DNA of 17,839 nucleotides, from the NCBI GenBank assembly GCA_964474885.1, contig CAYYWO010000013.1, positions 1 through 17,839 of the forward strand. Reading direction: 5' to 3'. This stretch comes from Candidatus Hadarchaeota archaeon (GTDB lineage Archaea; Hadarchaeota; Hadarchaeia; Hadarchaeales; JAWBSP01). Shown here one piece after another: positions 1 to 17,772 of this stretch; the first letter of the stretch is position 1; each line of letters opens with the position of its first letter. The translations under genes were made by a program, and so were the position numbers. Under the pieces are notes generated by a model. That model made no database searches, was not told the origin of the DNA, and saw only the letters and a list, made by a program, of their open reading frames with translations.

Positions 1-29
1 TCGATGATGAATTCGAATTCCTAGATTAA
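1..29 (+). CDS. Possible 3' end of an upstream gene (..DDEFEFLD*)
   Basis: Open frame 3-26 ending in TAA at 27-29, then a T-rich tract and the next RBS. Confidence 0.35.
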
Positions 30-57
30 TTTTCTATTTTTAAGGAGGTCGATTCTG

Positions 58-423
58 ATGGCTAAGAAGTGGGTTTGTTTCGGAAATGAGGAAATAAGCA
101 TAATGCTAATTGCATTTGAGTATGCATATGACGAAGAAAGATATTTCTCTGGAATAGACGAACTTGAGGGTGCAGTGGTTGACAAGAGCTACACGAACAT
201 ACTCGAAGCTCTGAAAGATTTTCAGGATTGCTTAGATAGGGATTTTGAATCTGTTGAGCTTACAATACTTACTAAGCACAAGAAAGAAGGTATTAGAGTT
301 ATAAGAATTACTATATCTGAAAATGGGGAAACGACAATCTGTTTATCTATAGATTTAGATGACATAAACAAAGAATTATCTAAAAAGATAGATAAAATTA
401 AAGAAATTATTTCAAATCTATAG
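58..423 (+). CDS. Hypothetical acidic protein, 121 aa
   Basis: AAGGAGGT RBS at 42-49; no motif recognised. Confidence 0.8.
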   Translation: MAKKWVCFGNEEISIMLIAFEYAYDEERYFSGIDELEGAVVDKSYTNILEALKDFQDCLDRDFESVELTILTKHKKEGIRVIRITISENGETTICLSIDLDDINKELSKKIDKIKEIISNL

Positions 424-435
424 TGGGGGATTCTG

Positions 436-588
436 ATGTATAAGCTAGTTATCAATCCCGAATATAAGGTTAAGGCTGGGAAACCAGAATGCAATCATGA
501 AAGAACTGTAATACAGCTAGGAAATGTGATTTACGAGTTCTGCGATGAATGTAGAACCGTTTGGATCCGCAAGGAGGAACAAACATGA
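436..588 (+). CDS. Small Zn-ribbon-like protein, 50 aa (not in ORF track)
   Basis: MYKLVINPEYKVKAGKPECNHERTVIQLGNVIYEFCDECRTVWIRKEEQT; CxH...CxxC; G-rich RBS upstream; ATGA overlap with the next gene. Confidence 0.8.
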   Translation: MYKLVINPEYKVKAGKPECNHERTVIQLGNVIYEFCDECRTVWIRKEEQT

Positions 589-1157
589 GAAGGTGTGATT
601 TATTAAAATATCATGATTATATTTCTTTTATTATTGACAAGTTATTGGAACGGTTATACAACCTGCTTAGGAAGACTGAGGATGAGATGACGGTGATGGC
701 CGTAAAGCATGTTATAAACGTACTGGAGGAGGAGAAGAGGAGTTTATGGTTTTCATCTCTGTGTAAGAAGGTATTCAGTGGTTATAGGATAGGGATGACG
801 GATTTGGATAAGGTTGTTGTTCTTAACGGAGAAATTAGGGCCTTAATCGAATATAAGTTCCGAAAGGAGGATTTTGATAAGGCCATACCTGTGAATGCGT
901 TCCAACTTATAACATTACAGGAATTATCCAAGTTGTCTGGCATTCCGTTGTACTACATAGTGGAGATAGGAGAATACAGTGAAAAGTGGTTCAGGATTTT
1001 TAAGGTCAATCCTGATAAAAGATACAGGATAAAGAGATGCGGCAATGGCAATGCAAGAGATACCTATTCATTAATCAATCTTAATAACACTATTTTAATG
1101 AATGAGTTAGAATTTAAGTCATGGCTCAAGGAGGTCATGACAAATGGAAAGAGATAA
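585..1157 (+). CDS. PD-(D/E)xK-fold nuclease-like protein, 190 aa
   Basis: TDLD...ALIEYK motif followed by QLITLQELSKLSGIPLYYIV; start moved to ATG 585 using AAGGAGG at 571-577. Confidence 0.7.
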   Translation: MRRCDLLKYHDYISFIIDKLLERLYNLLRKTEDEMTVMAVKHVINVLEEEKRSLWFSSLCKKVFSGYRIGMTDLDKVVVLNGEIRALIEYKFRKEDFDKAIPVNAFQLITLQELSKLSGIPLYYIVEIGEYSEKWFRIFKVNPDKRYRIKRCGNGNARDTYSLINLNNTILMNELEFKSWLKEVMTNGKR

Positions 1158-2211
1158 TTTTTATTCTCCCCCGAGAATTAATGTGGGAAGGCGACCTTCA
1201 GGTAGGATCGATTTTACATTAAGAATTGATAAGCAGCTATACGAGAGATTGAAGGAAATAAGCCAGTCTACTGGAAAATCCATAGCAGATCTCTTAGAAC
1301 CAAAGATTATTGAGTTAATAGCATTATACGATTCAAATTTGAAGAATAGTAAGAGTGGGCTCGCCCGGATTCGAACCGGGGACCTTCGCCTCGTAAGGGT
1401 ATCGTTGAAAGACCTCTACACCAAACATAAGAAGAAATTCATAGAGTATATGCGAAAGAGAGTGAAAAAAGGAGAAATCTCAGAAGAGACTGTGGATGAT
1501 TACATATCAGCGCTTGATAAGAACTTATCTCATGTAATGCATCCAGATGAGCTTGAGGAATTGGTTCTAAAGGTAAAGGGTGACAAATTCGCTAAGGGTC
1601 TTAGAAATTTCTTCAACTACTTGGAGGATAGAGGAATCACGGATATAAATGGCTATGATCTTGACAAGTGGCGAAAGAAGACACCAATAAAGAAATATGG
1701 CTCGAGAGAAATCTTCATTAGTGATGATGAGCTAAAAGAAGCTTATTATTCTCACATCAGAAAACAAAACGACGAAGAGCTTGAATTGGTATTCCTGTTA
1801 TTAGTTTACAGCGGACTTAGACTTAAACATCTCTGGAGAGCCTTGAAAGCTTTCGATCCTCAAAATGTTGTTCAAGTAAATGAAAAAGTGATAAGATATC
1901 CTGTTTTCTCTGTTTCAAGAGGAAAGAAGAAAGCTTATTGGCTTTATTGTCCATCAAGCATCAAATTGAGAAAAATAACACAAGGATATGACTATTTTGA
2001 AGAGAATATTATTTACAAGAGAGTTTCAGCGATAACGATCAGAAGTTGGAATTATAATTTCTTGATTTTCAAAGGCGTTCCAGAATCTGTTGCTGATTTC
2101 ATTCAAGGCAGAGCAAGTGTAACAGTCGGTTCAAGACATTACTTGGCAAAGACTAAGCAAGCTGATGAGTGGTATACCCAAGTTGTTGATAAGTTTCCTC
2201 TGGAGGGTTGA
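1144..2211 (+). CDS. int: SSV-type tyrosine integrase with N-terminal ribbon-helix-helix (RHH) domain
   Basis: YSGLR, TIRSW, ADFIQGR and RHYL catalytic motifs; FTLRIDKQLYERLKEISQSTGKSIADLL RHH pattern; attP inside the coding sequence. Confidence 0.93.
   Translation: MERDNFYSPPRINVGRRPSGRIDFTLRIDKQLYERLKEISQSTGKSIADLLEPKIIELIALYDSNLKNSKSGLARIRTGDLRLVRVSLKDLYTKHKKKFIEYMRKRVKKGEISEETVDDYISALDKNLSHVMHPDELEELVLKVKGDKFAKGLRNFFNYLEDRGITDINGYDLDKWRKKTPIKKYGSREIFISDDELKEAYYSHIRKQNDEELELVFLLLVYSGLRLKHLWRALKAFDPQNVVQVNEKVIRYPVFSVSRGKKKAYWLYCPSSIKLRKITQGYDYFEENIIYKRVSAITIRSWNYNFLIFKGVPESVADFIQGRASVTVGSRHYLAKTKQADEWYTQVVDKFPLEG
1356..1399 (-). other. attP: attP: 3' half of tRNA-Val(TAC)
   Basis: Minus strand reads CC-CTTACGA-GGCGA-AGGTC-CCCGG-TTCGAAT-CCGGG-CGAGCCC-A: anticodon loop with TAC, T-arm, 3' acceptor strand and discriminator. 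The 5' half is absent. Confidence 0.92.
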
Positions 2212-2236
2212 GCAATGCAAATGTTGGGGCATAGGG

Positions 2237-2545
2237 TTATTTAACTGGAACCAAGACAATTATCTCATCTCCCAATTTTTTAACTCTCGAAATTAATTCT
2301 ACAAAACTTTTAGCTTTAATTAAAATACCACCATCAACCATTTCAGCTTCAAGATCGGTAGCTTTGAATAATCGCAATTGGTAGGCTGGAGCGGTTATCC
2401 AACTTTTAGGCAACGTTATTCCTTGACCATTTCCCATTCTACAAACCTTTCTTACATCATATCCAAACAGCTCCATATACCTAACCATGGGCCTTTCAGA
2501 TTTAAACTCCAAACAACATTCGAATTGTTCTGATAGTTCTAACAT
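2237..2545 (-). CDS. AbrB/MazE/SpoVT-like DNA-binding protein
   Basis: VRKVCRMGNGQGITLPKSWI signature; exact start uncertain. Confidence 0.72.
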   Translation of the reverse strand: MLELSEQFECCLEFKSERPMVRYMELFGYDVRKVCRMGNGQGITLPKSWITAPAYQLRLFKATDLEAEMVDGGILIKAKSFVELISRVKKLGDEIIVLVPVK

Positions 2546-2621
2546 TTATTACGATCGTCTTATTATTTATTCTTTTACATTGTTTACGCCAATATATTGG
2601 TTGGTTTTTGCAAGGGGGTGA
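2546..2621. promoter_or_regulatory. Divergent promoter region (AbrB gene / structural operon)
   Basis: AT-rich gap between divergent genes; perfect palindrome CCAATATATTGG at 2589-2600; GGTGA RBS at 2617-2621. Confidence 0.5.
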
Positions 2622-2628
2622 GATCAAG

Positions 2629-2991
2629 GTGTTGAAGAGCGTGAGGGCTAAGCTCGCTTTAAAGTTGGCCAAGAAATTCGGCATCACAAAAGAAATGATC
2701 GAAGAAAGGAAGAAGGAGTTCTTGGCATGGCTTTCTGAGCGAGGATTGCAGCCAAGCTGGGAGAACTATGTTGCATTCATAAAAGATACGAGGGGACAAG
2801 GGAACCTAATTGATTGGGTCATAGGTGTCATTCTTTTGGCAATTCTCGGCGTTGGCGTGGCACTTCCGATCGTCATAGACACTGTTAATCAAATATCGCC
2901 AAATCTGTCGGGCACAACGGCCATGATCGTCGGAATTATTCCGACGATCGTGGTGGTAGTAATACTACTGATGTTCCTTGGCAGGCGTTGA
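2629..2991 (+). CDS. Major capsid protein candidate (VP1-like hydrophobic hairpin, long leader, class III cleavage site)
   Basis: GTG start after GGTGA; about 56-aa charged leader ending FIKDTRG|Q; two hydrophobic helices with an NLS sequon in the loop; first gene of the structural block. Confidence 0.75.
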   Translation: MLKSVRAKLALKLAKKFGITKEMIEERKKEFLAWLSERGLQPSWENYVAFIKDTRGQGNLIDWVIGVILLAILGVGVALPIVIDTVNQISPNLSGTTAMIVGIIPTIVVVVILLMFLGRR

Positions 2992-2996
2992 TTAGC

Positions 2997-3311
2997 ATGG
3001 ACCTCACAATTTTTATTATTTCAATAATCATAACAATAATATTTGCGATATTTGGCATGAAATACTACGCCTACAGAGTACTGAGCACGATCTTGTTCAT
3101 TCTTCTTGGCGTAATAGTGCTTGCGGAGAACATAACAGTAACGAATTATTTCGTTGCTACGGTGAACAATTCGACGCAAATTGTCAATACTACAACTGTT
3201 CTGCTATCTCCACCGTTGAATTGGGTTATTCCAATAGCTTTGATATTCGGCGGTGTAGCTCAGCTGGGAGGAGGAAGAAGAGAAAGGTTTGGGGGATTAG
3301 TACATGGCTGA
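2997..3311 (+). CDS. Three-TM membrane protein
   Basis: Three hydrophobic segments; loop with NIT, NNS/NST and NTT sequons; ATG 2997 preferred over TTG 2988. Confidence 0.8.
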   Translation: MDLTIFIISIIITIIFAIFGMKYYAYRVLSTILFILLGVIVLAENITVTNYFVATVNNSTQIVNTTTVLLSPPLNWVIPIALIFGGVAQLGGGRRERFGGLVHG

Positions 3312-3696
3312 TGAAAGATATTCTCAAGCTCAGCATCAGCAGATGGTTTACAATTGGATTCAGTTCCAAAAGACTTTGAGTGAGCCTCAATCTCCTCTCA
3401 TAACTTCAGATGTTACGAGGGCAGTTTTATCTAAGCAGGGTTGTAATTTCATCCGCAGGCTAACGCTTTTTGCTAATATGCTCAAGACGAAAGGCTTTCA
3501 CAATTCAGCGAAGATGGTGATCGACCTTGCTGGTGCTTACGCAATCGCAACGCTCGGAATGGGCAACTATGCAATGCTTATCGCTCAATCAGTTTGGAGC
3601 GTCAGAGCTTTCATGTATCCAGAGGAGCAGAAGGAGGACGACATCATAAGTTCGATTTCTAAGCATTTACAAGGCTTTTTGAAGAAGAAGAGGTGA
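3304..3696 (+). CDS. Hypothetical protein, 130 aa
   Basis: Overlaps the previous gene, co-oriented; no motif recognised. Confidence 0.8.
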   Translation: MADERYSQAQHQQMVYNWIQFQKTLSEPQSPLITSDVTRAVLSKQGCNFIRRLTLFANMLKTKGFHNSAKMVIDLAGAYAIATLGMGNYAMLIAQSVWSVRAFMYPEEQKEDDIISSISKHLQGFLKKKR

Positions 3697-3700: not shown

Positions 3701-4411
3701 ATGAAGATTAACGCCGAGAAAGTTATGCTGTTGGTTTTCGGGCGGGATAGAACCGTCAGATTTGAGAAAGGGCTGAAGCTCAAGGACGACATAATATTGA
3801 ACGGAGATAGAGCTTACTTGAGAAGAAACAGTGGGAGAAACAGCTTAATGCTGTTTTTACAATCTTGCGTTGTGCCAGCGAAAGGCGAAAGCGTCAAAAT
3901 CGAAGATTTGTATAAGGCCTACGTCGATTTCTGCGAAGAATATGGCTTTGATATTCTCAACACTCAGAAGTTTGTGGACATCATCGACGACTACCTCGAA
4001 GTAGATGCTATGAATGGCGTTGTTAAGGACATAGAAATCGCCGATAAAAGGGTGAAAGTCGAGAAAGATGCTGATATCTACATCTACGAAAGGCAAAGCA
4101 TTTTCAGGAAGAGAAAGATACCGGTTTTCGTAGTCGTCGAAGGAGTGCCAAAGACGATTACTTTCGATGAGCTTAAGAGCTACGCAATTGGAACTAATGG
4201 CGAAGTTATCAGCTTGGACGATTTTACCTTAGGACAGATGCTAAGCGAGAGCATGTTCATAGGAGCGACCATTGGAACTCAAAAGCTATTTTCAGACATG
4301 AAATTCATGATCATAGTTACCTTAGCGATGGCTCTAATAGCTGTAATACTGTGTAGCTACAACCTGTACTATGTACAACAGATTTTGAATATTCTGCAGA
4401 AGATACTATGA
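3701..4411 (+). CDS. C-terminally membrane-anchored protein with internal D5-type winged-helix domain
   Basis: GAGGTGA RBS; internal FLQSCV...VKIEDLYKAYVDFCEEYGFDILNTQKF pattern; C-terminal TM FMIIVTLAMALIAVILCSY. Confidence 0.7.
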   Translation: MKINAEKVMLLVFGRDRTVRFEKGLKLKDDIILNGDRAYLRRNSGRNSLMLFLQSCVVPAKGESVKIEDLYKAYVDFCEEYGFDILNTQKFVDIIDDYLEVDAMNGVVKDIEIADKRVKVEKDADIYIYERQSIFRKRKIPVFVVVEGVPKTITFDELKSYAIGTNGEVISLDDFTLGQMLSESMFIGATIGTQKLFSDMKFMIIVTLAMALIAVILCSYNLYYVQQILNILQKIL

Positions 4412-4491: not shown

Positions 4492-4872
4492 ATGCAAGCG
4501 CAGAATCAGACTGAAAAAACAACTTTGGAAATTTACGGTGAGAAGATTGAGCAGTTAGATAGGATTTTCACATTCACATCGTCAGTTGAAGTGAAAGCCA
4601 AAGTATTATTCCAAATGGTAGAAATCTGCAAAAGACTAGAAGAACGTGGAATTCTTGAGCTTAGCACTGAAATCGACGAAAATGAGCTGAAGGAATTGTA
4701 TGTACATGCGATTCTAGCATCTAGCAACTTCCAGATCGATGCTGAAGCTGAGATTGTTAAGAGATTGTGCCAGATCGAATCTGACTTGGTGCTAGATTGT
4801 ATTGAGGCTGGTTTGATCGTGAGGTTTCATGTTCCTGAAGAGGATGTCTGGAGTATGTTGGGTGATAGATAA
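4492..4872 (+). CDS. Hypothetical acidic helical protein preceding the ATPase
   Basis: GGTGGTG RBS; TAATG overlap with the ATPase. Confidence 0.8.
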   Translation: MQAQNQTEKTTLEIYGEKIEQLDRIFTFTSSVEVKAKVLFQMVEICKRLEERGILELSTEIDENELKELYVHAILASSNFQIDAEAEIVKRLCQIESDLVLDCIEAGLIVRFHVPEEDVWSMLGDR

Positions 4873-5801
4873 TGACTCTTATTGCTAAACTAGCTGAAAA
4901 AGCGTATGAAATCGATGGATATGTAGATGCATTAATATATGGGGATAAGGGAGCTGGTAAAAGCGTATATGCGCTTATATCTGCATTTAAGATATACAAT
5001 GATTGGGATACAGTCTTAAAACACCTCTTTTTTAGCCCTAAAGAAGCTATAGATTTCATACTTGAAAAGCACGAACGTGGTGAAAGAGTTAAGATGATAA
5101 TATTAGATGATGCTGGGTTATGGCTTGGGAAATTAAGGTGGTGGGAGAAAGAAAAGGTCGAATTTGCAGACTTCTATGATGTTATAAGAGAAGTATGCGC
5201 ATGTGTTGTTTTTACGGCTCCCTCAGACAACATAATGAGAAAGATTGTAAAAGATATACAATTGAGGCTTCACGTTCAAATTATTAACGATATTAAATCT
5301 AAAATCAGGATATATAAGAGAAAGCTACTTCCAAGTTTTAAGGAGATTGTAAAGACTGTAAAAGATGAAACATTCGATAGATGGATTCCTGATGAGGTTT
5401 ATCAAAAGTATAAGGACATGAAAAGAAAAGCAACGTATGAGAAATTACTGAAAGTTAAAGAATCATTAGATAAGTCCGAAAAGGGGGAAAAGGAAGAAAT
5501 TGTTCAAAATATTATAAAAGAATATTATATTATCAAGAACGGTAAGGAAATAAAATTCGAAAGAATTGCTGTTAGTCATGCCGTTAGTAATGCTCGATAC
5601 ACTTATCGTTTAACAATTCCAAGACAAGTCAGGAAGATTTATGGTGATTCGATTGTGGACATTCCTATGATTTGGATTCGTTTAACTAATGATGTCTTTG
5701 ATTTCCCAATTATAGTCCCTGATCCTTATTATGAAGATTTTATAAATATATTTCTAGAAAAGAAAGGAGGTGATTCATCATCAGCTTCTACGACATCTTA
5801 A
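4872..5801 (+). CDS. P-loop ATPase (SSV1 B251-like) with C-terminal AbrB-like segment
   Basis: Walker A GDKGAGKS, Walker B MIILDDAG; C-terminal YRLTIPRQVRK. Confidence 0.85.
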   Translation: MTLIAKLAEKAYEIDGYVDALIYGDKGAGKSVYALISAFKIYNDWDTVLKHLFFSPKEAIDFILEKHERGERVKMIILDDAGLWLGKLRWWEKEKVEFADFYDVIREVCACVVFTAPSDNIMRKIVKDIQLRLHVQIINDIKSKIRIYKRKLLPSFKEIVKTVKDETFDRWIPDEVYQKYKDMKRKATYEKLLKVKESLDKSEKGEKEEIVQNIIKEYYIIKNGKEIKFERIAVSHAVSNARYTYRLTIPRQVRKIYGDSIVDIPMIWIRLTNDVFDFPIIVPDPYYEDFINIFLEKKGGDSSSASTTS

Positions 5802-6058
5802 CCATTCGAGTTCCAACAGAATACTTAGTAATTTATTCGTTGTTTATTATATTTTTGTGGGTATTAAATGGTATCTTCCTAGCTAGAGATTTCATGCACT
5901 TTCAGAGAGCTTGTGAGAAGTATAAGCTCGATGATGTTGATGTTTTCCTTCATCCGACAGAGGATTATCCCGATGATGTGAAAAAAGCCGTTGGGAGAGC
6001 TTGGAAAAGTTTGATAATTTGGTGTGCGGTTACAGTCCTACTATTCGTTGGTTGTTAG
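5780..6058 (+). CDS. Two-TM membrane protein; probable start at ATC 5780 (fallback TTG 5840)
   Basis: AGGAGGTGA at 5765-5773; frame open from 5774 to 6058; two hydrophobic segments. Confidence 0.65.
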   Translation: MSFYDILTIRVPTEYLVIYSLFIIFLWVLNGIFLARDFMHFQRACEKYKLDDVDVFLHPTEDYPDDVKKAVGRAWKSLIIWCAVTVLLFVGC

Positions 6059-6255: not shown

Positions 6256-6768
6256 ATGTCGCTCTTAAGCAAGCTTAAGGAAAAGGTTAGGAGAAAGAGA
6301 GAAGAGGTAGAAATCCAGGGAGTTAGCAGACCGAAGAAAACCGAGAAGATAAAGCGGTTTTTCACTATTGGAAGAGGGATAGCAAAGGAAGAGAAAAGAA
6401 GAGTGAGACGAGTTGAAGAGCTGCTTGAAGAAGCAGAGATCAAGGAGGAAGCTAGAAAGATCGTTAGTAAAGCTAAGAAAGCGGGTGTAGAAATCTCGCT
6501 TTTGGAAGCTGAGAGCTATGTGAGGCATAAGAAGAGGCAGAAAGAGCGAGAGAAGAAAATACAGATGGTAAAAAGCTTGGTTTCGAAAGGTTTTAGCAAT
6601 TTCTTAGAGGCTACAGGTTTTCCAGAGGAATATAGACCTAAGAAGGGTAAATCCAAGAAGAAGGGGAAGAATAAAGCGAAGAGGAATAGTGGAAGAAGAA
6701 AAGGGAAGAAGACAATTGTTAGAAGAAGTAAAGGAAGAAAGAGCACACCTATGATTCTAAGGTGGTGA
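6256..6768 (+). CDS. Highly basic K/R-rich protein, 170 aa
   Basis: Begins 2 nt after the previous stop; charged helical core and a K/R/G tail. Confidence 0.82.
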   Translation: MSLLSKLKEKVRRKREEVEIQGVSRPKKTEKIKRFFTIGRGIAKEEKRRVRRVEELLEEAEIKEEARKIVSKAKKAGVEISLLEAESYVRHKKRQKEREKKIQMVKSLVSKGFSNFLEATGFPEEYRPKKGKSKKKGKNKAKRNSGRRKGKKTIVRRSKGRKSTPMILRW

Positions 6769-6843: not shown

Positions 6844-6849
6844 TTGATC

Positions 6850-9626: not shown

Positions 9627-11738
9627 ATGCTAGTGAAAACAGGAATTTACACTCCCTACGGATATTTCCCAAACGAAGAAGCTTATCATGAATTCCTGCG
9701 TAGGAAATTCCCAGAAATTTATGGTTCGCAGAGACCTACTCATTCTCCTCCTCAAACAACCCATAAACCAAATCAAACTGAAATAAACAGAGAATTGAGA
9801 AAACTAGTTGCTCAGGGAGTTCCACCTGAAAAAGCCGCTCAAATAGTATCGGAACGATACGGTGTCAAAGCGGAGGTTTACAAGGTACATATCCCTTCCT
9901 TGACAAAAATACATCCGAAACCAGTTAAAAGACAATTGTCTCCTTTAGAACGAATTAAGCTAGAAATTGCAAAAAGAAGGGTGGCCATCGAGCGGAAGGG
10001 AGATATCGAAAGAAGCATCCCAATGCGATTGATCTATGGTGCTGAATTGGCTGGGTTAGGATTTGTCCAAGGAGGTTTAAATGTCGCTGAGAGCTTGAAA
10101 GACTTGGCCAATTTGGCAAGAAAAAATCCAGCAGATTTTGGCAAAAACTTAGTCACTGGCTCAATCGAATGGGCAAAATCCATACCAGAGAGAGTTAAGC
10201 TTGGATTCACCGAATCTCCGTTTTTCGTTGGCACAGTAGCATCTGAAATTGCCATAGCAGAAGCTGGGGGAAGGTTGCTTGGCAAAGCAATTCCCGAATC
10301 TGTAAAAACAAAAATACCCGTAAAAACGCCAATCGAGCAGATTAGAAGAAGATTGACTGAATTTAAGCCAGCATTTACAGTAATCGAAATAGGAAAACAA
10401 AAGACGATAATGAAAGGAAAAACACCCTCAGAAGTTGCAATAGTCGGAATGAAAGATTTTGGCAAGATTCAAGAGATTAAGCCAATCTCAGCGACCGTCA
10501 TCGAAACTGGATTCAAGCTCGAAGAGGGGGAAGGATTAGGAGTTGGAAGAATACGACAGAGGCTAGGTTGGGAACTGAGAACTGAGAAAGGTGAACCAAT
10601 CCGAATTACAACAGTTTACAAGAATCTTTTAGGAAAAAGAGCTATGATCACTTCTGAGTTCGGAGAAAAAGCTATTAGGATCTTAGCTAAGAAGGCAAAA
10701 GGAGAAGAAGTCAAAGGATTCGGAATAAGGATCGGTGAAATACATCCCATCAGATCCCAAGAGATGACGGAAAAGCCAGTTATCAGAGCCATCGGAACGC
10801 CGAAAGAGTTTATTCCGAAGGAGGAAACAAAACCACCGAAAGTAATAGATGTCAGAGGATTAATCGGAGAAGCTCCAATTACAAGACCGACGAGAAGAAA
10901 AACGATCGAAGTCGGAAGGAGAATCGAGCAAATCGTAAAAGCAGAGAAAGAAGCTAAGAGTATTGCAATCGTCGATGTCAGCAAAGAGGTTAAAGCTTTG
11001 GAGAGAGCTATAACTGAGACCAAGCCAATGGTTGGCTTTGCGCCAACTATGCCTTTGGTAGTTCCACCTGTGTTCACACCGCCAACCTTTAGCTACGCTC
11101 CGCCAACATTTTCAGTTCCAACCGTGCCAGTAGAATTGGAGTTAATCAGACCAAAACCAAAGACCGAATTATTTACACCTTTGGAAGTTGGCATTCAACC
11201 AACTGTTGGATTAAAAACATCATTTGTAACAACACCAAGCCTAGTAACTAGTGTTAAACCTCTCACAACCCCCATCGAAATTATAAAGCCAAGCATTAAG
11301 CCATTAATCGAAACCAAACCTCTGGTGGAACCAATTGTGAAAGTCGAACCCATTATAATCCCCGAAACAAAACCGATCGCAAGGCCGATCACAAGTCTTA
11401 AACCGATAAGCGTTCCAATTACAAGCATTGGAATCCCGTTAATACCAATTATCAATATTCCCATACCAAATCTTGGCTTTAGCTTAGGATTTGGAGCTTC
11501 ATCGTTTGTAGTGGGCAAGCCAAGCAAAAAGAAAGGAAAGAAGAAATACATAGGATTGCTCGCTGGTCTTACGGAGGTAACGCTCACAGAGCTTTTAACT
11601 GGTCGTAAGGCCCATCATCTGATGGTTCCATCTAAAATGGCCAAGTTCTGGAAACAGACGCTCAAAACTGGCGGTATAATCGAAGTTCCGACATTTGAGC
11701 AGATTATAGGCAAAACTCGAAGGAGAGGATTGTTATGA
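9627..11738 (+). CDS. Large basic Pro/Ile/Thr-rich protein, 703 aa, putative virion protein
   Basis: GAGGTGA upstream; long ORF coupled to both neighbours; Gly/Ala-rich amphipathic region and periodic Pro-rich region. Confidence 0.8.
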   Translation: MLVKTGIYTPYGYFPNEEAYHEFLRRKFPEIYGSQRPTHSPPQTTHKPNQTEINRELRKLVAQGVPPEKAAQIVSERYGVKAEVYKVHIPSLTKIHPKPVKRQLSPLERIKLEIAKRRVAIERKGDIERSIPMRLIYGAELAGLGFVQGGLNVAESLKDLANLARKNPADFGKNLVTGSIEWAKSIPERVKLGFTESPFFVGTVASEIAIAEAGGRLLGKAIPESVKTKIPVKTPIEQIRRRLTEFKPAFTVIEIGKQKTIMKGKTPSEVAIVGMKDFGKIQEIKPISATVIETGFKLEEGEGLGVGRIRQRLGWELRTEKGEPIRITTVYKNLLGKRAMITSEFGEKAIRILAKKAKGEEVKGFGIRIGEIHPIRSQEMTEKPVIRAIGTPKEFIPKEETKPPKVIDVRGLIGEAPITRPTRRKTIEVGRRIEQIVKAEKEAKSIAIVDVSKEVKALERAITETKPMVGFAPTMPLVVPPVFTPPTFSYAPPTFSVPTVPVELELIRPKPKTELFTPLEVGIQPTVGLKTSFVTTPSLVTSVKPLTTPIEIIKPSIKPLIETKPLVEPIVKVEPIIIPETKPIARPITSLKPISVPITSIGIPLIPIINIPIPNLGFSLGFGASSFVVGKPSKKKGKKKYIGLLAGLTEVTLTELLTGRKAHHLMVPSKMAKFWKQTLKTGGIIEVPTFEQIIGKTRRRGLL

Positions 11739-11980
11739 GAAAGGATAAGAAAGGGCAGTTTACAATCTTGGCTTTATTTACTCTATTTATAACGTTGGTC
11801 GTGACAGTGCAATTTTTGCCAATGATCTACGATATATGTTACAACATAAGTCAAGTGTGCGAAGAAAAGGGAGATTATGTAGCAGCCTTTTTGGTCAGAT
11901 TAATTCCAGTTAGCATAGTAATAGTCGAATTGGCCAGTATATTCTACTATGCAAAACCATATATAATAAAGGAGGAATAG
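11735..11980 (+). CDS. Second capsid-like hairpin protein (VP3-like) with class III signal peptide
   Basis: MRKDKKG|QFTILALF...LP; NIS sequon in the loop; second helix LVRLIPVSIVIV parallels IVGIIPTIVVVV of the 2629 gene. Confidence 0.72.
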   Translation: MRKDKKGQFTILALFTLFITLVVTVQFLPMIYDICYNISQVCEEKGDYVAAFLVRLIPVSIVIVELASIFYYAKPYIIKEE

Positions 11981-11983: not shown

Positions 11984-14383
11984 ATGAGATGGCTGAGCAT
12001 AATTGTGGCATTAATATTCATCTGTGCGATTGGATTGGCTGATGCCAAAATATTGGAGGATTTCGACGATGGTAGCAATGATTTTTTCGCAGTATCAAGC
12101 AATCCGAGCTATGCCCACTCGGAGGAAATAAAGAATGATGGTTTTACCAAATATTTGCGTGTTAGTTATAAATTAGTAGATGATTATCAAGAAATATATT
12201 TAACAAATAATTCATTACATACTAGAACGATAAGCTTTGAAATAAGAAAAGCTTGGTATATGGCATCTTCTGCTACAGTATATATAAAAATAACTTTGAA
12301 TAACGGATATTATACGCAGGTCAGCAGCAGCGGCGGCGGCTGGTGGTATATAACCATGATCGGAGACTCAATTTTATTCTACAAGAATGGTGCACTGGTA
12401 AATCAAGTTGACAACACTGGTGGAGATTACATAAAAGGCATCAAAATAACAGTGCGAGCTGGTAAATATTACTCCGGATACAGCATGGGCATAGACATAG
12501 ACAACATAGCCGACTACGATTTCGTAGAAATTCACGATTACGATCAAATCCTCTACAAAACTCCAACGAGCGATACAATCCTTTATCTGAAATATATAGC
12601 CAAACCTTGGGCTAATAGCGTCAAAATAAACATAAGAGATTACGACGCTGGAATCGTCGTCGATACGATCGATCTAGGCAATACAACTTATGGCAAAGTT
12701 TCTACGAACATAACTGATTGGGATCTCGGATTGTATCAAGTAGAATTGATCGTCGACGGCCAGACCGAATCGACAAACTATTTCTTCTACGCCGACGGCT
12801 TGGCAAATCACTCCGTCGCTTTGGATAAGGAATCTTATCTATCCAATGAAAATATGCAAGCAAATTACAACATAGATCCCTACTATGCTTCTTACGATTA
12901 CTTTCTCAAGATCTACGATTCGAACGGGAACTTAATAGCGACCTATCCCGTATCTGGTTCAAGCGGTGTAAAATCCGTTCCCGCTCCCGAGAAAGGTGGA
13001 ACATATTACATTATCCTAACGAGATCCGACAATGTCGAATTGGCTTATGATGTATTCGGCGTCGTCGAGCAAGTAGTTATTAAAGGATACGTGAAAGATC
13101 AGTACGGAAATCCCATCTCAAACGCAACAGTAACTTTTAATCAGCTCACCAACATTTACAACGATACGACCGACTTCAATGGCTACTACGAATCGCCAGC
13201 TCTTTACGTAGGTGCAACGATCTACGTCAAAGCCAATAAAACAGGATATCAGCCCTACGATACGAGATTTACCCCCAAGAGCGGAGGAATCTATTGGCTT
13301 AACATGACGTTGGTAAACGATTCCGAAGCTTACGGCGTCTGGGGTATAGTAAAGCAAAAACCGCTGGGAAACCCTTTGGTTGGTGTCAAAGTGGTCATCG
13401 CAAACGAGACCTACAACAATACGGTGTACACGAACGATTACGGTTTCTACCGCTTTGACAGCATAGCTAATGGAACATACACCATTACGGCATCCAAGAA
13501 CAATTATACCTCTGAAAGTAAAACGATAACCGTAAGCGGCGATTGCAGAGTAGATTTTACCCTTACACCTATATACAAGCTAACTATACTCGCAAGAACT
13601 TCGTTTGGACTTTACCTCAACGAATTTCAGTGTACCATCGAAGATCAAACAACAGGTAAGCGTTATACATTTAACACCACAAAAGGCAATGTGATTGCAT
13701 TTTTGCAAACTGGTTGGTATTCGATCTATGTTACAACCGACAGATACTATGGTTCAGCAACTGTCTATCTGTATGGTGATAAGGTTGTAACCGTAACTGT
13801 AGCCGAGCTGCCGAGTGGGTTGCAAAAACAGGTTGTAGTTTACCCTCCCTTACATGCAATAACGCTTAAGATTGTAAAAGGACTGAAACCCCTAGTAGAT
13901 GTTCCCATTGTAATTACGGATCAGTATGGCAACAGCACAACTGTTTACACCGATTCGTACGGAAGAGCGGTATTCTGGGGCAACAAGACGATAAAATACA
14001 CGATAAACGTGAACAACAGCGAGAAGGTTGTGGAGCTTTATCCTTCCGAATCTGAATACATAATCGTGATTCCGAAGGGTTTAAACTACACGGTTAATCA
14101 AACAGTTCAGCAATATACGGTTGTAAACGGAACTTGGCAATGGGGGCTGACTGGGATTGCTGGTAACTTATCAAAGCAACTGTCCCCCTCGGCAAAAGGA
14201 ATAATAACAGCCATAGTAGTTTGGTTGGCGATGTTCGGAACCGCAAGATTTATGCAGAATGCGAGCGTTGTCGGATTGATTACTTTGGTTATATTGGCTG
14301 TTATCGGCTTCGCAGATATTATAACCGCCGTATTCTGCGGCCTATTCGTCGTAGGCATGTATGTTTTGAAGAGGTGGTTATGA
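11984..14383 (+). CDS. Large adhesin/tail protein with carboxypeptidase-regulatory-like beta-sandwich repeats, probably glycosylated
   Basis: Signal peptide; repeats IKGYVKDQYGNPISNATVTF...TDFNGYY and VWGIVKQKPLGNPLVGVKV...TNDYGFY; about 20 sequons; C-terminal TM helices. Architecture is analogous to SSV1 C792/VP4. Confidence 0.82.
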   Translation: MRWLSIIVALIFICAIGLADAKILEDFDDGSNDFFAVSSNPSYAHSEEIKNDGFTKYLRVSYKLVDDYQEIYLTNNSLHTRTISFEIRKAWYMASSATVYIKITLNNGYYTQVSSSGGGWWYITMIGDSILFYKNGALVNQVDNTGGDYIKGIKITVRAGKYYSGYSMGIDIDNIADYDFVEIHDYDQILYKTPTSDTILYLKYIAKPWANSVKINIRDYDAGIVVDTIDLGNTTYGKVSTNITDWDLGLYQVELIVDGQTESTNYFFYADGLANHSVALDKESYLSNENMQANYNIDPYYASYDYFLKIYDSNGNLIATYPVSGSSGVKSVPAPEKGGTYYIILTRSDNVELAYDVFGVVEQVVIKGYVKDQYGNPISNATVTFNQLTNIYNDTTDFNGYYESPALYVGATIYVKANKTGYQPYDTRFTPKSGGIYWLNMTLVNDSEAYGVWGIVKQKPLGNPLVGVKVVIANETYNNTVYTNDYGFYRFDSIANGTYTITASKNNYTSESKTITVSGDCRVDFTLTPIYKLTILARTSFGLYLNEFQCTIEDQTTGKRYTFNTTKGNVIAFLQTGWYSIYVTTDRYYGSATVYLYGDKVVTVTVAELPSGLQKQVVVYPPLHAITLKIVKGLKPLVDVPIVITDQYGNSTTVYTDSYGRAVFWGNKTIKYTINVNNSEKVVELYPSESEYIIVIPKGLNYTVNQTVQQYTVVNGTWQWGLTGIAGNLSKQLSPSAKGIITAIVVWLAMFGTARFMQNASVVGLITLVILAVIGFADIITAVFCGLFVVGMYVLKRWL

Positions 14384-14667
14384 TGGGTAGTACAGGGACA
14401 AAATCGCTGATAATCATGCTAACGATAAACATTTTCTTGGTTTTAGGAGGATTCACCATAGTGGATGTCGATCTGATGGGTATGTTTCAAGATCCGAGTA
14501 AATTCATAGCTGAGATATTGAAGCTTGGAATTGGCATCGCTGGGGCTCCCTTGGCATTGCTCGCAAACGCAGGCATTCCTGCCGAGATAAGGTTGGTATT
14601 TGGCCTACCTCTCACAGCCGCTTATACTTTAGCTTGGATACAATTTATCAGGGGCAAACCCCTTTAA
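14380..14667 (+). CDS. Small membrane protein, about 95 aa
   Basis: Start moved to ATG 14380/14383 (GAGGTG RBS, ATGA overlap); hydrophobic. Confidence 0.8.
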   Translation: MMGSTGTKSLIIMLTINIFLVLGGFTIVDVDLMGMFQDPSKFIAEILKLGIGIAGAPLALLANAGIPAEIRLVFGLPLTAAYTLAWIQFIRGKPL

Positions 14668-14681
14668 GGAGGTGTATAAGG

Positions 14682-14966
14682 GTGGCGGATTGGCTTAATA
14701 TAACCATGATCGAGGATTTGTTTTTCCAAGGATTCGTGGATGTATTCGGGAGCAGCTTAATAGTGTTCATATTCTTGTTAGGATTTTTCGCTTTCTTATG
14801 TTACAGCGGTAGGTTGAGCGTCGAAGAAAGTGCTTTGGTGTTCATCCCGTTGATATTTGGCGTTATTCAAGACGGTTGGTTGCCATTGTGGGTTAAAGCT
14901 TTGTTTATAATTGCAATAGCGGTTATATGGGCGATGGCAATTCTTAGAATCATCAGAGAGGGGTGA
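14682..14966 (+). CDS. Three-TM membrane protein, 94 aa
   Basis: AAGGAGGTG RBS and GTG at 14682; three hydrophobic segments. Confidence 0.8.
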   Translation: MADWLNITMIEDLFFQGFVDVFGSSLIVFIFLLGFFAFLCYSGRLSVEESALVFIPLIFGVIQDGWLPLWVKALFIIAIAVIWAMAILRIIREG

Positions 14967-15124: not shown

Positions 15125-15322
15125 ATGGTCTGGTTGAAAATTGAGGGAGAAGATGAAAGTATCAATCTCATCGAAGTGCACAGCATCAAAGCTATTTCAA
15201 TTAAGCCGCTGAGGAACGGCTTGGGAATTATCATAATGTCTGATGTTGTCGAAATCAAGCAGACTTTAGAAAGTGATGCGGATCCTGAAGAATTCGCCAA
15301 AGCTTTAATTGAAGCCTCTTAA
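15125..15322 (+). CDS. Small acidic hypothetical protein, 65 aa
   Basis: GGGTGA RBS ending at 15120, ATG 15125. Confidence 0.72.
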   Translation: MVWLKIEGEDESINLIEVHSIKAISIKPLRNGLGIIIMSDVVEIKQTLESDADPEEFAKALIEAS

Positions 15323-15812
15323 TAGCATCAAGATGATTATTGAGATAGTTCATATATAACCTCTTGAACTCTTCAAACTTTATATTTTTATCTTTCAATT
15401 CATGTCTTAGATCTTTTGGAGCGCCCAGCTCCTTAAATGATACATACTCTATTCCAACCTTGTTTAGTGCTTCCTTTAGCTTAGTCTTTGAAAATCCATT
15501 CTTCCTGCTTAAAGGCAACTCTCTAACATCTACAAGCAACTTTATTCCATGCTTCTGAAGGATATCTATAAAGTTGCTTACGGTCTTGCCTTCATAGCCT
15601 ATCGTATATATAACGGACTTTGCCTCTTCTTGATCTTTTAAAAGCTCTAAGGCTGACCTAAAGTTGTTTTTTGAGACCAAGTCTATATACAGCTTTAGAG
15701 CTTCTTCAACAGCTTTCCCAACAAAACCTCTTATACCACCATACCTTTTCTTAACAACATCTCTGAACTTAAACCAAAGTTCATCGTCAATTTCTACCTT
15801 TAATTCTGCCAT
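15255..15812 (-). CDS. RHH + DUF488 fusion, apparently C-terminally truncated
   Basis: N-terminal LKVEIDDELWFKFR...VEEALKLYI (RHH); IYTIGYEG, LVDVRELPLSRKNGFSK, IEYVSFKELG (DUF488); the usual C-terminal CxE...CHR is missing. Confidence 0.8.
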   Translation of the reverse strand: MAELKVEIDDELWFKFRDVVKKRYGGIRGFVGKAVEEALKLYIDLVSKNNFRSALELLKDQEEAKSVIYTIGYEGKTVSNFIDILQKHGIKLLVDVRELPLSRKNGFSKTKLKEALNKVGIEYVSFKELGAPKDLRHELKDKNIKFEEFKRLYMNYLNNHLDAIKRLQLKLWRILQDPHHFLKSA

Positions 15813-16104: not shown

Positions 16105-16290
16105 TTACTCTCCTCTAAGAGCATGAATAGCAAGGTATAGTATAACAGCACCAAACACAACTCCAGCGACAAGCGTTATAATCCCGTAAAGAGTTTGTAA
16201 TAGAAGTTTATAAACACCAAAACCTATCAAAACAATAAAGAAGATGACAATACCAATAATTGTTTTGATCGGATCTATTTCGTCTTCCAT
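16105..16290 (-). CDS. Two-TM membrane protein, 61 aa
   Basis: ATG directly abuts the HNH stop; two hydrophobic helices. Confidence 0.8.
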   Translation of the reverse strand: MEDEIDPIKTIIGIVIFFIVLIGFGVYKLLLQTLYGIITLVAGVVFGAVILYLAIHALRGE

Positions 16291-16833
16291 TCACCAGATC
16301 CTCCAGAAATCGTCGCTTTTCTTTTTTCTCTTGCGCTTGCTTGAGGATGAGTCACCCCAAAGAGATGGAACGTTTATTCCTAAGTCGAAGGATGACGATG
16401 ATTTCTTCTTTCGAGAGGATTCGCTTTTCTTAGAGGATTTTCCCCTCTTTGAGCTTGTTAAGGATGGAATATCAATCCCTAAGTCAAAAGATGATTCCTT
16501 CTTCCTTCGGGAAGATCTCCTTGAGCTTGTTAGGGATGGGATCTCGATCTCCAAGCTGAATCCAGAGGATTCTTTCTTAGCTTTAACAATCTTATGCCTG
16601 TCTCTCTTAGTTTTGATATGATGACATTCTGGGCAAAGCGCTTGAATGTTGCTTATGTCATCTTCTCCACCCAAAGCAAGCGGTTTCTTGTGATCAAAAT
16701 GAATAACACCTGGCTTGAGCCGCTTACCACACATTGCACACCTGTAATTCTGCCTTTCAAGAATAACTTGCTTCTCCCATTCAGAAAGCTTCTTTCTTTT
16801 CTTTTTCTTTTCACCAAATAGAAAATCAAACAT
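16291..16833 (-). CDS. HNH endonuclease with Ser/Lys-rich repeat tail
   Basis: CAMC...HFDHKKPLALGGEDDISNIQALCPECH; AAGGAG RBS favours ATG 16833; three FxLxIx[IV]PSL repeats. Confidence 0.9.
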   Translation of the reverse strand: MFDFLFGEKKKKRKKLSEWEKQVILERQNYRCAMCGKRLKPGVIHFDHKKPLALGGEDDISNIQALCPECHHIKTKRDRHKIVKAKKESSGFSLEIEIPSLTSSRRSSRRKKESSFDLGIDIPSLTSSKRGKSSKKSESSRKKKSSSSFDLGINVPSLWGDSSSSKRKRKKKSDDFWRIW

Positions 16834-16863
16834 TCCTATCAACTCCTTTCGTTAATTAAGCAA

Positions 16864-16989
16864 AGTTACTTCATAGTTACTTAAGAGTTACTGAACCGTA
16901 ACGGAATAGTTCGATCTTATTTATATAATATGATTAATAATGTAATATTATAGTCGATATAGTAACTCAATCGTAACGTTTAAGTAACT
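16864..16989. promoter_or_regulatory. Two inverted 11-bp-phased GTWAC arrays around an AT-rich core in a divergent promoter
   Basis: GTTAC at 16865, 16876, 16887; GTAAC at 16898, then 16962, 16973, 16984; TATA-like boxes lie between the arrays. Confidence 0.8.
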
Positions 16990-17018
16990 GTTGATCATAA
17001 ATAAGATTGGTGAGAAAG

Positions 17019-17171
17019 ATGGCAGTGTCAGTTAAAATCGAAATTCCAGAGGGAATGTATGAGGAAATTAAGAAGTTAGTCGACAGAAAGTTATTCAGGA
17101 ATGTAGCAGACTTCTTTTACATTGCAGGCCATGAAAAACTGTTTAGCATCAAAAGCTTGGAGAAAGAGTAA
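17019..17171 (+). CDS. CopG/Arc/MetJ-type RHH regulator, 50 aa (not in ORF track)
   Basis: GGTGA RBS at 17009-17013; MAVSVKIEIPEGMYEEIKKLVDRKLFRNVADFFYIAGHEKLFSIKSLEKE. Confidence 0.85.
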   Translation: MAVSVKIEIPEGMYEEIKKLVDRKLFRNVADFFYIAGHEKLFSIKSLEKE

Positions 17172-17180
17172 TTCTAATCA

Positions 17181-17187
17181 TTTTTTT
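17181..17187 (+). terminator. Oligo-T archaeal terminator
   Basis: T7 run about 10 nt after the RHH stop codon. Confidence 0.5.
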
Positions 17188-17313
17188 CATTGAAGATGTT
17201 GCTGAAACCGTTGTTAAAACTCCTTTCTACTTTTTTATCTTCTCAGAACGAAGAAAAAGGAGAGACGAGTTTGAGCGAATTGGAGAGATGGGTTGTTGGA
17301 AGATTGTGTTGAT

Positions 17314-17491
17314 GTTGCATGCAACTGTATGCTATAATATATGCATGCAACTGCATGCAATTAGAGTTAAATGTATGCGATACTATAAAAATACTTTATT
17401 CTCTTCTTTTCTCTCATACTTTATTCTACGATTTTCTTTTGAGGAGTGAATAATAAACCAAGTTATCTAAGTTGCATGCAACTGCATGCAA
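17314..17491. repeat. Three copies of a tandem TGCATGCA palindrome unit
   Basis: TGCATGCAACTG(C/T)ATGC at 17316, 17342 and 17473; ATACTTTATTCT direct repeat at 17391 and 17416. Confidence 0.85.
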
Positions 17492-17493
17492 GG

Positions 17494-17679
17494 CTAAGCC
17501 TTCGCCACTTCTTCAACTTGCTCTTTCTTTAACTCTCGTTCTTTATAATAATTTATTAAGTATCTAAGAACTTCTACATCGTGCTTTACACCTATTTTTT
17601 CTTTGATAAGTTCGAATATCTTTGCAACTTCCTCATCAGTTTTTATTTTCAGCTGAATATATTTTTTGGATCGCCCCAT
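17494..17679 (-). CDS. RHH-like DNA-binding protein, 61 aa
   Basis: IQLKIKTDEEVAKIFELIKEKIGVKHDVEVLRYLINYY strand-helix-helix pattern. Confidence 0.72.
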   Translation of the reverse strand: MGRSKKYIQLKIKTDEEVAKIFELIKEKIGVKHDVEVLRYLINYYKERELKKEQVEEVAKA

Positions 17680-17772
17680 TACAGAAAGTCGCTAAGAAAG
17701 CCTCGCTTTTCAAAGCGGGGATGAATTAGGGGAGGAGGGAGGGGGAGGTTGGTAGTAGGTTTTTATTAGACT

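Follow-up and report, generated by a model that had tools for sequence, protein, structure and literature searches.

The stretch of DNA analysed here, which we call the window, is the entire contig C13 of a metagenome-assembled genome (MAG) of 60 contigs and 1.18 Mb; it is 17,839 nt long and is deposited as contig CAYYWO010000013.1 of assembly GCA_964474885.1, a bin labelled Candidatus Hadarchaeota archaeon. It appears to be the genome of a temperate virus that infects archaea, with an integrase of the SSV type, a small hairpin protein that is our candidate for the major capsid protein, and an ATPase. Genomes, contigs and loci are designated G, C and L, respectively, and G000 is the window's own MAG.

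Twenty-five open reading frames (ORFs) were found. Nearly all long frames lie on the plus strand between 58 and 14966, followed by a right arm (15.0-17.8 kb) of minus-strand genes and repeats, and a conserved block of ~12 genes runs from the hairpin protein through two small membrane proteins. As the original prediction on this DNA, made from its letters alone, had noted, a ribosome-binding-site motif (GGAGG or AGAGGTGA) stands upstream of at least 8 of the 25 starts. Window proteins were scanned against three family libraries (Pfam, PHROGs and NCBIfam, the last adding nothing to the Pfam and PHROG assignments), and fetched viruses and loci supplied local sets of 1801 ORFs for phmmer and 2361 ORFs for hmmsearch. 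The features on which the argument turns are the following.

561..1157, plus strand: nuclease-like protein of the Holliday-junction-resolvase type (phrog_27407, E = 5.1e-9)
1144..2211, plus strand: unsplit SSV-type ('suicidal') tyrosine integrase of 355 amino acids (aa) with an N-terminal RHH domain (PF16795, RHH_3, phrog_5127)
1356..1399, minus strand: attP within the integrase gene, equal to the 3' half of tRNA-Val(TAC) and with exact matches in Archaeoglobaceae tRNA-Val(TAC) genes
2608..2991, plus strand: candidate major capsid protein of 127 aa, an N-terminal part followed by a two-helix hydrophobic hairpin (VP1-like; family A2, phrog_11172)
4872..5801, plus strand: AAA+ ATPase of the SSV B251 / pleolipovirus NTPase type (phrog_5484; hhalign to B251)

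Integrase and attachment site

The integrase gene is a single continuous frame. Its product matches the Pfam family 'Archaeal phage integrase' (PF16795, E = 8.7e-45) over profile positions 2-161 of 161 as well as phrog_5127 (E = 1.7e-45), and is 39.5% identical to the ApPV1 integrase, 33% to that of TPV1 and 64-85% to split copies in Archaeoglobi genomes. Within the gene, positions 1357-1399, read as their reverse complement, correspond to the part of a tRNA that runs from its anticodon stem (anticodon TAC) through its discriminator base; ARAGORN called no whole tRNA in the window. BLAST lengthens this 43-nt match to 44 nt (1356-1399) at 100% identity in five genomes among the matches listed. 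These are exactly the bounds that had been proposed for a tRNA-Val attP in an unsplit integrase gene, and both proposals are borne out.

The 43-mer occurs exactly in the Archaeoglobaceae MAGs G001 and G002, and is absent, with up to three mismatches allowed, from both Desulfurococcales MAGs tested. Among 401 genomes drawn evenly from the phylum of G001 it is exact in 14 and present with at most one mismatch in 16, and all 16 fall among the 96 genomes of G001's class, the Archaeoglobi. Five of the six attachment (att) loci checked lie in genes that ARAGORN calls tRNA-Val(TAC), the sixth being a partial att copy beside an Int(C) fragment. The tRNA-Val genes of the window's own MAG are just 80-86% identical to the attP stretch.

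Homologs of the integrase are found in two pieces around proviruses. On G019:C31, a provirus is bounded by two att copies 15 kb apart; a nuclease homolog with 71% identity and Int(N) (residues 1-87) come after one copy, and Int(C) (residues 85-353), at 68.5% identity, after the other. G001 has Int(N) and the nuclease next to a tRNA-Val(GAC) where contig C16 ends, and Int(C) on C10; the G423 halves, with 80-82% nucleotide identity to the window, are distributed over C111 and C99. Nuclease homologs with 63-79% aa identity always adjoin Int(N) fragments (G019, G001, G002, G423, G126). Since the gene is split at the att site in every integrated relative examined with this integrase type, and is whole in the window, we conclude that the window represents the unintegrated form, as had been predicted from the intact gene.

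The genome is most likely circular. In G126:C5, homologs of window positions 17226-17451 and 17679-17839 lie 1.56 kb ahead of a homolog of 671-1139, and in G002:C34 a homolog of 16831-17171 lies upstream of a homolog of 442-994. Gene order is thus kept across the contig ends in these relatives, which supports a circular map; judging from this colinearity, the data fit a circle that would be complete or lack ~1 kb at most. The best-matching sequencing run, a hydrothermal vent metagenome that may be the source sample, contains 98% of the sampled words from the first 10 kb.

Other observations concern the same site. The tRNA-Val att sequence is a few hundred bases or less from a contig end in G188:C48, G249:C27, G249:C127, G030:C36, G349:C38 and G359:C18 and C58, and G359 has two exact copies of the tRNA-Val att sequence; assemblies seem to break at this integration hot spot. 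The window's own bin has related integrases on two further small, low-GC contigs, C54 (148-248, 1027-1545) and C36 (598-1551), 47% and 33% identical, respectively, and C54 also carries a copy of a small RHH-like gene with 94-97% nucleotide identity to window positions 17073-17173. These two contigs are probably further elements of the same host population.

A hairpin protein probably related to the VP1 family

The original prediction had pointed to capsid-like hairpins, and two adjacent genes indeed encode hydrophobic proteins of this sort: the 2608-2991 product has a soluble N-terminus, then a pair of hydrophobic helices whose connecting loop carries an Asn-x-Ser/Thr site, and the 2988-3311 product has three hydrophobic stretches. 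The former defines family A2, of 17 members, some of them 87-88% identical. It is the best-conserved gene of the group (87-88% identity versus 53% for the ATPase, apparently on the same 10,720-bp contig), and conservation so far above that of the ATPase is as expected of a capsid protein.

In phmmer searches of the 1801 local ORFs, the hairpin protein matched SSV1 VP1 (E = 6e-8) and the VP1 proteins of ASV1, SSV6, SMF1 and SSV2, and it matched no other membrane protein in that set. Across the local databases, fusellovirus VP1s are its only matches at E <= 0.01 outside its own family. A hidden Markov model (HMM) of family A2 likewise recovered SSV1 VP1 from the 2361 ORFs (E = 1.8e-6). Nine of the 17 members match phrog_11172, the SSV VP1 family, with a best E of 0.0011; SSV1 VP1 itself matches it at E = 1.9e-73. 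By eye, a Lys/Arg-Gly-Glu/Gln motif stands directly before the first helix in the hairpin family and in SSV VP1 alike, at what we take to be the place where SSV1 VP1 is cleaved. Homology of the hairpin protein to SSV VP1 is probable, not proven, the match being weak and one-directional; it agrees, at that strength, with the spindle-type virus that had been predicted, all five local fusellovirus VP1s and the SSV VP1 PHROG being found.

The ATPase

The ATPase, also named in the original prediction, matches phrog_5484 (the SSV 'DnaA-like' family) at E = 2.4e-36 and SSV1 B251 by hhalign at 99.7% probability (E = 4.5e-27). It is 25-31% identical to its counterparts in the thalassapleoviruses (ThalV2, GahPV1, AvPV1, ApPV1) and the SSVs; the full-length matches, with up to 96% coverage, are those of the thalassapleoviruses. 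Scans of IMG/VR with the ATPase, an ATPase alignment and a 703-aa protein of the window (described below) returned no relatives.

A further element type was seen in Archaeoglobaceae MAGs (L009, L010, L014), with an ATPase 41% identical to that of the window, the same small gene upstream of it and a related integrase, and with no hairpin capsid gene in the stretch examined. It encodes a protein of 600-650 aa that over a short stretch resembles GahPV1 gp04 and, in the L014 fragment, also the Rep gene region of ThalV2.

Relatives, host and misbinning

A profile of the capsid candidate matches 8 of the 96 Archaeoglobi genomes, none of the 151 genomes in a sample of class Thermoprotei (the class of the Desulfurococcales MAG G004) and none of the 64 other genomes of G000's own class. 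Three syntenic proviruses, L101, L102 and L103, each match 13 of the 25 window ORFs in the same order: capsid candidate, small membrane protein, 130-aa protein, winged-helix/membrane protein, 126-aa protein, ATPase and small membrane protein, then the homolog of the 703-aa protein, the 81-aa protein, the adhesin (C-terminus only) and the two small membrane proteins. L101 lies in an Archaeoglobaceae MAG and L102 in a single-contig genome of 1.56 Mb; the ends of the L102 provirus were not located, the 20 kb examined containing neither a tRNA nor flanking repeats of at least 20 nt. The group occurs as a full provirus in the single-contig genome G094 and as a small remnant in G052. The virus group has Archaeoglobi of deep-sea vents as its hosts and a tRNA-Val gene as its insertion site, and the host class that the original prediction had offered as a possibility is upheld by the exact attP and by the syntenic proviruses in that class.

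The bin label is at odds with this host. The GC content of the contig is 0.39, versus 0.52-0.56 in the large contigs of the MAG. The bin's aEF-2 (on C14) is 52-57% identical to those of Archaeoglobaceae and Desulfurococcales alike, and an EF-1alpha-like GTPase of 422 aa on the low-GC contig C37 (L116: 736-2004) is 90-92% identical to those of G001, G002 and G094. GC content and these identities together indicate that the bin mixes Archaeoglobaceae fragments with another archaeon, and the fragments likely stem from the host population. The contig is misbinned and its host is not the organism of MAG G000. Many small contigs of the bin have a GC content of 0.33-0.46 (C16, C17, C18, C24, C27-C29 and many of C34-C60). 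For curation, this means that the window and several low-GC contigs do not belong with the MAG in which they were binned.

Large proteins and other genes of the plus strand

The remaining plus-strand genes, with one divergent ORF, are listed here.

58..423, plus strand: ORF of 121 aa with no assigned function (no Pfam, PHROG or NCBIfam match; GGAGG upstream of the start)
2237..2545, minus strand: small divergent ORF, 102 aa (no Pfam, PHROG or NCBIfam match)
2988..3311, plus strand: small membrane protein with three hydrophobic stretches, core gene (39% identical homolog at the same position in L101)
3304..3696, plus strand: core protein of 130 aa with no assigned function (homologs of 39-46% identity in L024, L101, L102, L103 and L104)
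3701..4411, plus strand: core protein with a winged helix and a C-terminal membrane helix (Pox_D5, E = 7.5e-6; Cdc6_C, E = 6.9e-5; residues ~47-101)
4492..4872, plus strand: small core protein (126 aa) preceding the ATPase (homologs directly upstream of the ATPase in L009, L010, L021, L023, L101, L102 and L104)
5840..6058, plus strand: small membrane protein, 72 aa (homologs in L101, 30%, and L102, 43%)
6256..6768, plus strand: Lys/Arg-rich protein, 170 aa (partial homologs in L102 and L103)
6844..9264, plus strand: accessory membrane-anchored protein, 806 aa, carbohydrate-binding-like with a calcineurin-type metallophosphoesterase (Metallophos, E = 2.5e-16; CBM_4_9, E = 5e-4)
9279..9626, plus strand: small, very basic protein, 115 aa (phmmer: ApPV1 gp13, E = 6.3e-12; G019 provirus, E = 3.7e-11; AvPV1 gp07, E = 7.3e-8)
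9627..11738, plus strand: large core protein, 703 aa, with no assigned function (homologs in L101, 42% over 523 aa, and L102, 27%)
11735..11980, plus strand: small membrane protein, 81 aa, core gene (homologs of 51-58% identity in L101-L103)
11984..14383, plus strand: adhesin-like protein, 799 aa, with a signal helix, a chain of beta-sandwiches and a conserved C-terminal membrane anchor (CarboxypepD_reg, E = 4.8e-24; Ig-like)
14221..14966, plus strand: two small membrane proteins (148 and 110 aa as longest frames), core genes (homologs of 33-59% identity in L101-L103)

The 799-aa protein had been taken for an adhesin, and its CarboxypepD_reg and Ig-like domains bear this out. Its model (predicted local distance difference test, pLDDT, 65) has an all-beta ectodomain, a signal helix and four C-terminal helices in the membrane-anchor region, and its best 50 Foldseek hits are multi-domain beta-sandwich arrays, adhesin-like and macroglobulin-like. 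Five relatives were found. In L101-L103, only the last 143-194 aa are conserved, and a 45%-identical relative, listed on a contig of 69,036 bp, was sought in the last 20 kb of G001:C13 and not found there.

The 703-aa protein has a helical bundle and a beta region as well as a long stretch rich in Pro, Thr and Val, and its C-terminus is conserved; just 15 cluster representatives are found among 1.84 billion proteins. Its model (mean pLDDT 50) is confident only at residues ~105-220, too poor for a judgement of the fold; VIA-align gave generic helical-bundle matches only (Z <= 7.7) and the ESM Atlas nothing at >= 0.8.

The 806-aa protein is regarded as accessory because tblastn matched it in neither L101 nor L102; its C-terminal 147 aa have a 44% identical counterpart in G423:C131. 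By eye, its phosphoesterase domain retains intact DxH, GDxxD, GNHE and GHxH motifs, which we take to be the metal-binding set of such enzymes. For an archaeal virus this protein would be an unusual candidate surface or virion enzyme.

Homologs of the winged-helix protein in L101-L103 are 35-37% identical. The divergent 102-aa product is possibly a DNA-binding regulator, from a motif that, by eye, presumably resembles AbrB.

The right arm and the question of replication

The right arm carries accessory genes and a region of repeats.

15255..15812, minus strand: DUF488 protein with an N-terminal extension, accessory (PF04343, E = 3.2e-24; 52% identical homolog near the L103 provirus)
16291..16842, minus strand: HNH endonuclease with a repetitive Ser/Lys-rich tail, accessory (PF01844, E = 4.6e-12)
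16850..17491, no strand: control region, consisting of an AT-rich spacer in which GTTAC/GTAAC recurs, a small RHH-like gene and three 19-nt repeats
17494..17679, minus strand: small regulator-like gene, 61 aa (85% identical homolog inside the G019 thalassapleovirus provirus)
17680..17839, no strand: conserved non-coding stretch of 160 nt upstream of the 61-aa gene (81-92% nucleotide identity elsewhere)

The DUF488 and HNH genes are also found elsewhere in Archaeoglobi genomes. A 39-nt direct repeat within the HNH gene (16445-16555; copies 82% identical, 72 nt apart) corresponds to the repeated Ser/Lys-rich tail peptide. The AT-rich GTTAC/GTAAC spacer, with the inverted repeat I23 at 16875/16973, separates the HNH gene from a small gene at 17007-17171 on the plus strand, whose 54-aa product was assigned to the RHH type by eye and has an 81% identical homolog in G002:C34. 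Between this gene and the 61-aa regulator-like gene, which lie on opposite strands, sit the 19-nt copies of repeat family D3 (17316-17334, 17342-17360 and 17473-17491), each containing the palindrome TGCATGCA; they are candidate operator sites.

The original prediction had placed an insertion sequence (IS) at the right end. This we reject: the last 160 nt (17680-17839) hold neither an ORF nor a terminal inverted repeat, and are instead conserved non-coding DNA. In a nucleotide comparison with the 96 Archaeoglobi genomes in which the best three candidates per genome were scored, this stretch was found at 81-92% identity in at least seven genomes, sometimes in several copies per genome, and it has no Rfam match. 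We read it as a shared control region. On G019:C8, a homolog lies ~480 nt downstream of the 3' end of an integrase.

The lack of a recognisable replication gene, which the original prediction had noted, is upheld: among the families that Pfam, PHROGs and NCBIfam assign in the window there is no polymerase, primase, helicase or Rep. Of the two routes that it had suggested, host proteins or a gene lying beyond the IS, we favour the former. Rep-Arvir (DUF7845; PMC13107129) was considered as a hidden replicase and gave no Pfam match at E <= 0.01. Across the whole window, Rfam returned a single chance-level match, and a scan for sigma-70 promoters and terminators, a model ill-suited to archaea, gave no more than shuffled sequences did.

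Comparison with known spindle-shaped viruses

Whole-window megablast, and tblastn of the capsid candidate and the 703-aa protein, against 50,697 virus records returned nothing. Near-identity to a described virus, which the original prediction had named as a finding that would refute it, is thus not seen among these records; to judge from the comparisons made here, the likeness of any deposited virus to the window is limited to the integrase, the ATPase and a small basic protein.

By integrase and ATPase, the nearest deposited viruses are the SSVs and the pleomorphic viruses of Archaeoglobi. With the Fuselloviridae the window shares a VP1-type, precursor-type hairpin major capsid protein (weak match; a Lys-Gly-Glu-like motif before the first helix, by eye), a B251-type ATPase, an SSV-type integrase that targets a tRNA and has attP inside its own gene, a genome of 15-18 kb, a large C-terminally anchored protein and the lack of a recognisable replicase. 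The differences are that only the capsid, ATPase and integrase genes are detectably shared and that the host belongs to another phylum. When the 25 window ORFs were compared by phmmer with all ORFs of SSV1, SSV2, SSV6, ASV1 and SMF1, only the capsid protein matched, integrase and ATPase aside, except that the 81-aa membrane protein marginally matched SSV2 VP1 (E = 0.0043). By hhalign, SSV1 B277, A291, C166, C124, C102 and B78, which we take to be among the remaining fusellovirus core genes, all scored below 1%.

TPV1 and PAV1 also have marine hyperthermophile hosts. The TPV1 integrase is the 33% identical one mentioned above, and TPV1 has a similar order of nuclease, integrase, small membrane proteins, ATPase and large surface proteins with lectin-like domains. 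They differ from the window in showing no protein likeness past the integrase (tblastn found the integrase only; the TPV1 ATPase scored 1.8% by hhalign). The hhalign comparison comprised 27 pairs with SSV1, TPV1 and PAV1 proteins, using shallow family alignments (3-4 sequences versus single sequences); pairs of the 703- and 799-aa proteins with TPV1 gp21-23, PAV1 ORF676/678/898 and SSV1 VP4 (C792) lay outside the set. In these shallow alignments, TPV1 gp15-gp20, gp24 and gp25 and the PAV1 ORFs (proposed 'Deltafusellovirus') remained below 6%, apart from PAV1 ORF375, whose 77.5% covers only 23 columns around the P-loop.

According to PMC10919331 (2024), the virus described there, a pleomorphic one, was the first to be reported from any of the Archaeoglobi, and in the section consulted of a 2025 ICTV summary (PMC12451623) spindle families are given for other hosts only and none for Archaeoglobi. 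An excerpt of Nigro et al. 2017 (PMC5340873) reports lemon-shaped particles in crustal fluids rich in Archaeoglobi. No account of a spindle-type virus or provirus in Archaeoglobi came up in our literature search; outside that search, Krupovic et al. 2014 (J Virol) or the supplements of PMC7253208 may already include Archaeoglobus proviruses that carry this capsid gene.

Interpretation and alternatives

We read the contig as the episomal, most likely circular, ~17.8-kb double-stranded DNA genome, complete or nearly so, of a temperate Archaeoglobaceae virus of an undescribed group with a spindle-type (VP1-like) coat, and give this reading a probability of about 0.7. The placement of the window as a fusellovirus-like virus that is new at the family level, in its free form and with an Archaeoglobaceae host, is supported by the results above. 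The spindle shape would follow from the capsid gene, the group being known here from its genes alone.

Several results weigh against this reading. The contig has no terminal overlap, and no spacer of a CRISPR (clustered regularly interspaced short palindromic repeats) array in its own bin matches the window, no dedicated search of Archaeoglobi spacers having been made. The VP1 likeness is seen from one side: an HMM of SSV VP1/VP3 recovers no member of the hairpin family at E <= 1, hhalign of the hairpin family with SSV VP1 gives a probability of only 39.9%, a search of PDB sequences with the profile of the family is empty at E <= 10, and tblastn of the hairpin protein against deposited viruses finds nothing at E <= 1. 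Hydrophobic hairpins may also converge. Twenty-five of the 27 hhalign pairs scored below 6%, and, the ATPase aside, no SSV1, TPV1 or PAV1 protein tested in this way resembles a protein of the family. Finally, the ATPase, integrase, basic protein and regulator are common to thalassapleoviruses, which are pleomorphic and not spindle-shaped.

This last point, together with the weak and one-directional VP1 similarity, bears on the strongest alternative, a temperate enveloped virus of Archaeoglobaceae with a pleomorphic or vesicle-like virion, in which the hairpin protein would be an envelope membrane protein and its likeness to VP1 compositional or of very deep ancestry. The Thalassapleoviridae share with the window the host class, the habitat, the closest integrase, the full-length ATPase matches, the nuclease, the 115-aa basic protein and the 61-aa regulator. 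They differ in that the window has no VP4-like fusogen, VP3 or HRPV1 ORF6-like protein and has the VP1-like hairpin and other large proteins instead. For a profile of four VP4-like proteins the best window ORF scored E = 7, for the VP3 profile the best two scored 7.2 and 8.6, and for the ORF6-like profile no window ORF appeared at E <= 10, whereas the G019 provirus scored 2.2e-36, 8e-51 and 6e-198, respectively; these profiles and a gp09-like one stayed above E = 1 for every window ORF and for L101-L104. No pleolipovirus fusogen is among the best 50 fold matches of the 799-aa model. A fusogen fold in one of the large proteins had been named at the outset as a sign of such a virus; by profile and by the fold of the 799-aa protein there is none, the 703-aa model being too poor to judge. 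As fusellovirus VP1s are also the hairpin protein's only local matches beyond its own family, we consider a pleomorphic virion unlikely.

The G019 provirus (L086, G019:C31:81500-100500) is itself of interest. It is 15 kb long, sits in tRNA-Val(TAC), carries VP4, VP3, ORF6-like and gp09-like genes by profile, and has a split integrase 68-73% identical to that of the window. The strength with which the thalassapleovirus profiles recover it identifies it as a thalassapleovirus with a window-like integrase at tRNA-Val, so that the integration module is shared by two virus kinds.

We hold it to be quite improbable that the element is not viral and is instead an integrative plasmid or is carried in vesicles (pT26-2-like or pSSV-like), having borrowed its SSV-type integrase and its ATPase and encoding membrane proteins for transfer and no capsid. 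According to the passages of Badel et al. 2020 (PMC7253208) considered here, both plasmids and viruses carry integrases of this cluster; these passages place pT26-2-type suicidal integrases in four of eight closed Archaeoglobales chromosomes and label the elements 'IE', unidentified. The 'IE' elements share with the window the integrase cluster, the tRNA targets and the split genes, and differ in that, in those passages, they are catalogued by integrase only, with no family given; some of them may belong to the group described here. The plasmid comparison used the 703-aa protein and the ATPase as queries, the pT26-2 core proteins lying outside it: the ATPase matched one 5.7-kb Sulfolobus plasmid only, and the 703-aa protein had no tblastn match in 72,556 plasmids. 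Against a plasmid also speak the hairpin gene, the most conserved of the group and with the precursor-plus-hairpin layout of VP1, and the Pfam, PHROG and NCBIfam scans, in which no relaxase, conjugation ATPase or plasmid replicase appeared in the window. It is very improbable that the contig is only a piece of some integrated or defective element, or a chimera made in assembly, in which the integrase is intact by chance: the missing terminal overlap and the occurrence of the right-arm DUF488 and HNH genes elsewhere in Archaeoglobi genomes would suit it, but the integrated relatives examined all have the integrase split at att, the three libraries place no host gene at either contig end, gene order across the ends is kept in G126 and G002, and the one metagenome run, though possibly the source, has nearly all sampled words of the first 10 kb.

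For the temperate spindle-type virus that we favour, the gene content suggests the following life cycle. Integration at the host tRNA-Val(TAC) would split the integrase into Int(N) and Int(C) at the provirus ends, as is shown in relatives. The hairpin precursor, like SSV1 VP1, may be cleaved immediately ahead of its first helix and would then form a spindle-shaped, lipid-associated coat, while the B251-type ATPase and the membrane-tethered winged-helix protein could serve genome delivery or assembly at the membrane. The conserved C-terminus of the 799-aa protein would anchor it and its variable ectodomain would bind the host, perhaps aided by the accessory 806-aa phosphoesterase. Replication would rely on host enzymes, small RHH-type regulators acting on the repeated palindromes may balance the carrier state against production, and release would probably be by non-lytic budding, as in fuselloviruses.

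Only tentatively would we go further. It is possible, if somewhat doubtful, that the window is the type genome of a new, Archaeoglobi-specific family of spindle viruses that swaps integration, regulation, ATPase and basic-protein modules with co-resident thalassapleoviruses, a living link between the fusellovirus-like and pleolipovirus-like worlds, with proviruses in complete genomes that would be inducible in culture. Because full proviruses are present in single-contig genomes, the prediction of spindle-shaped particles built from the hairpin protein is directly testable. The group would also give a name to elements earlier left as 'unidentified integrated elements'. If true, these hosts would harbour a second, unrelated morphogenetic type that uses the same integrase type and tRNA site as the first and shares several genes with it, which would show how modules move between kinds of viruses in deep-sea hyperthermophiles.

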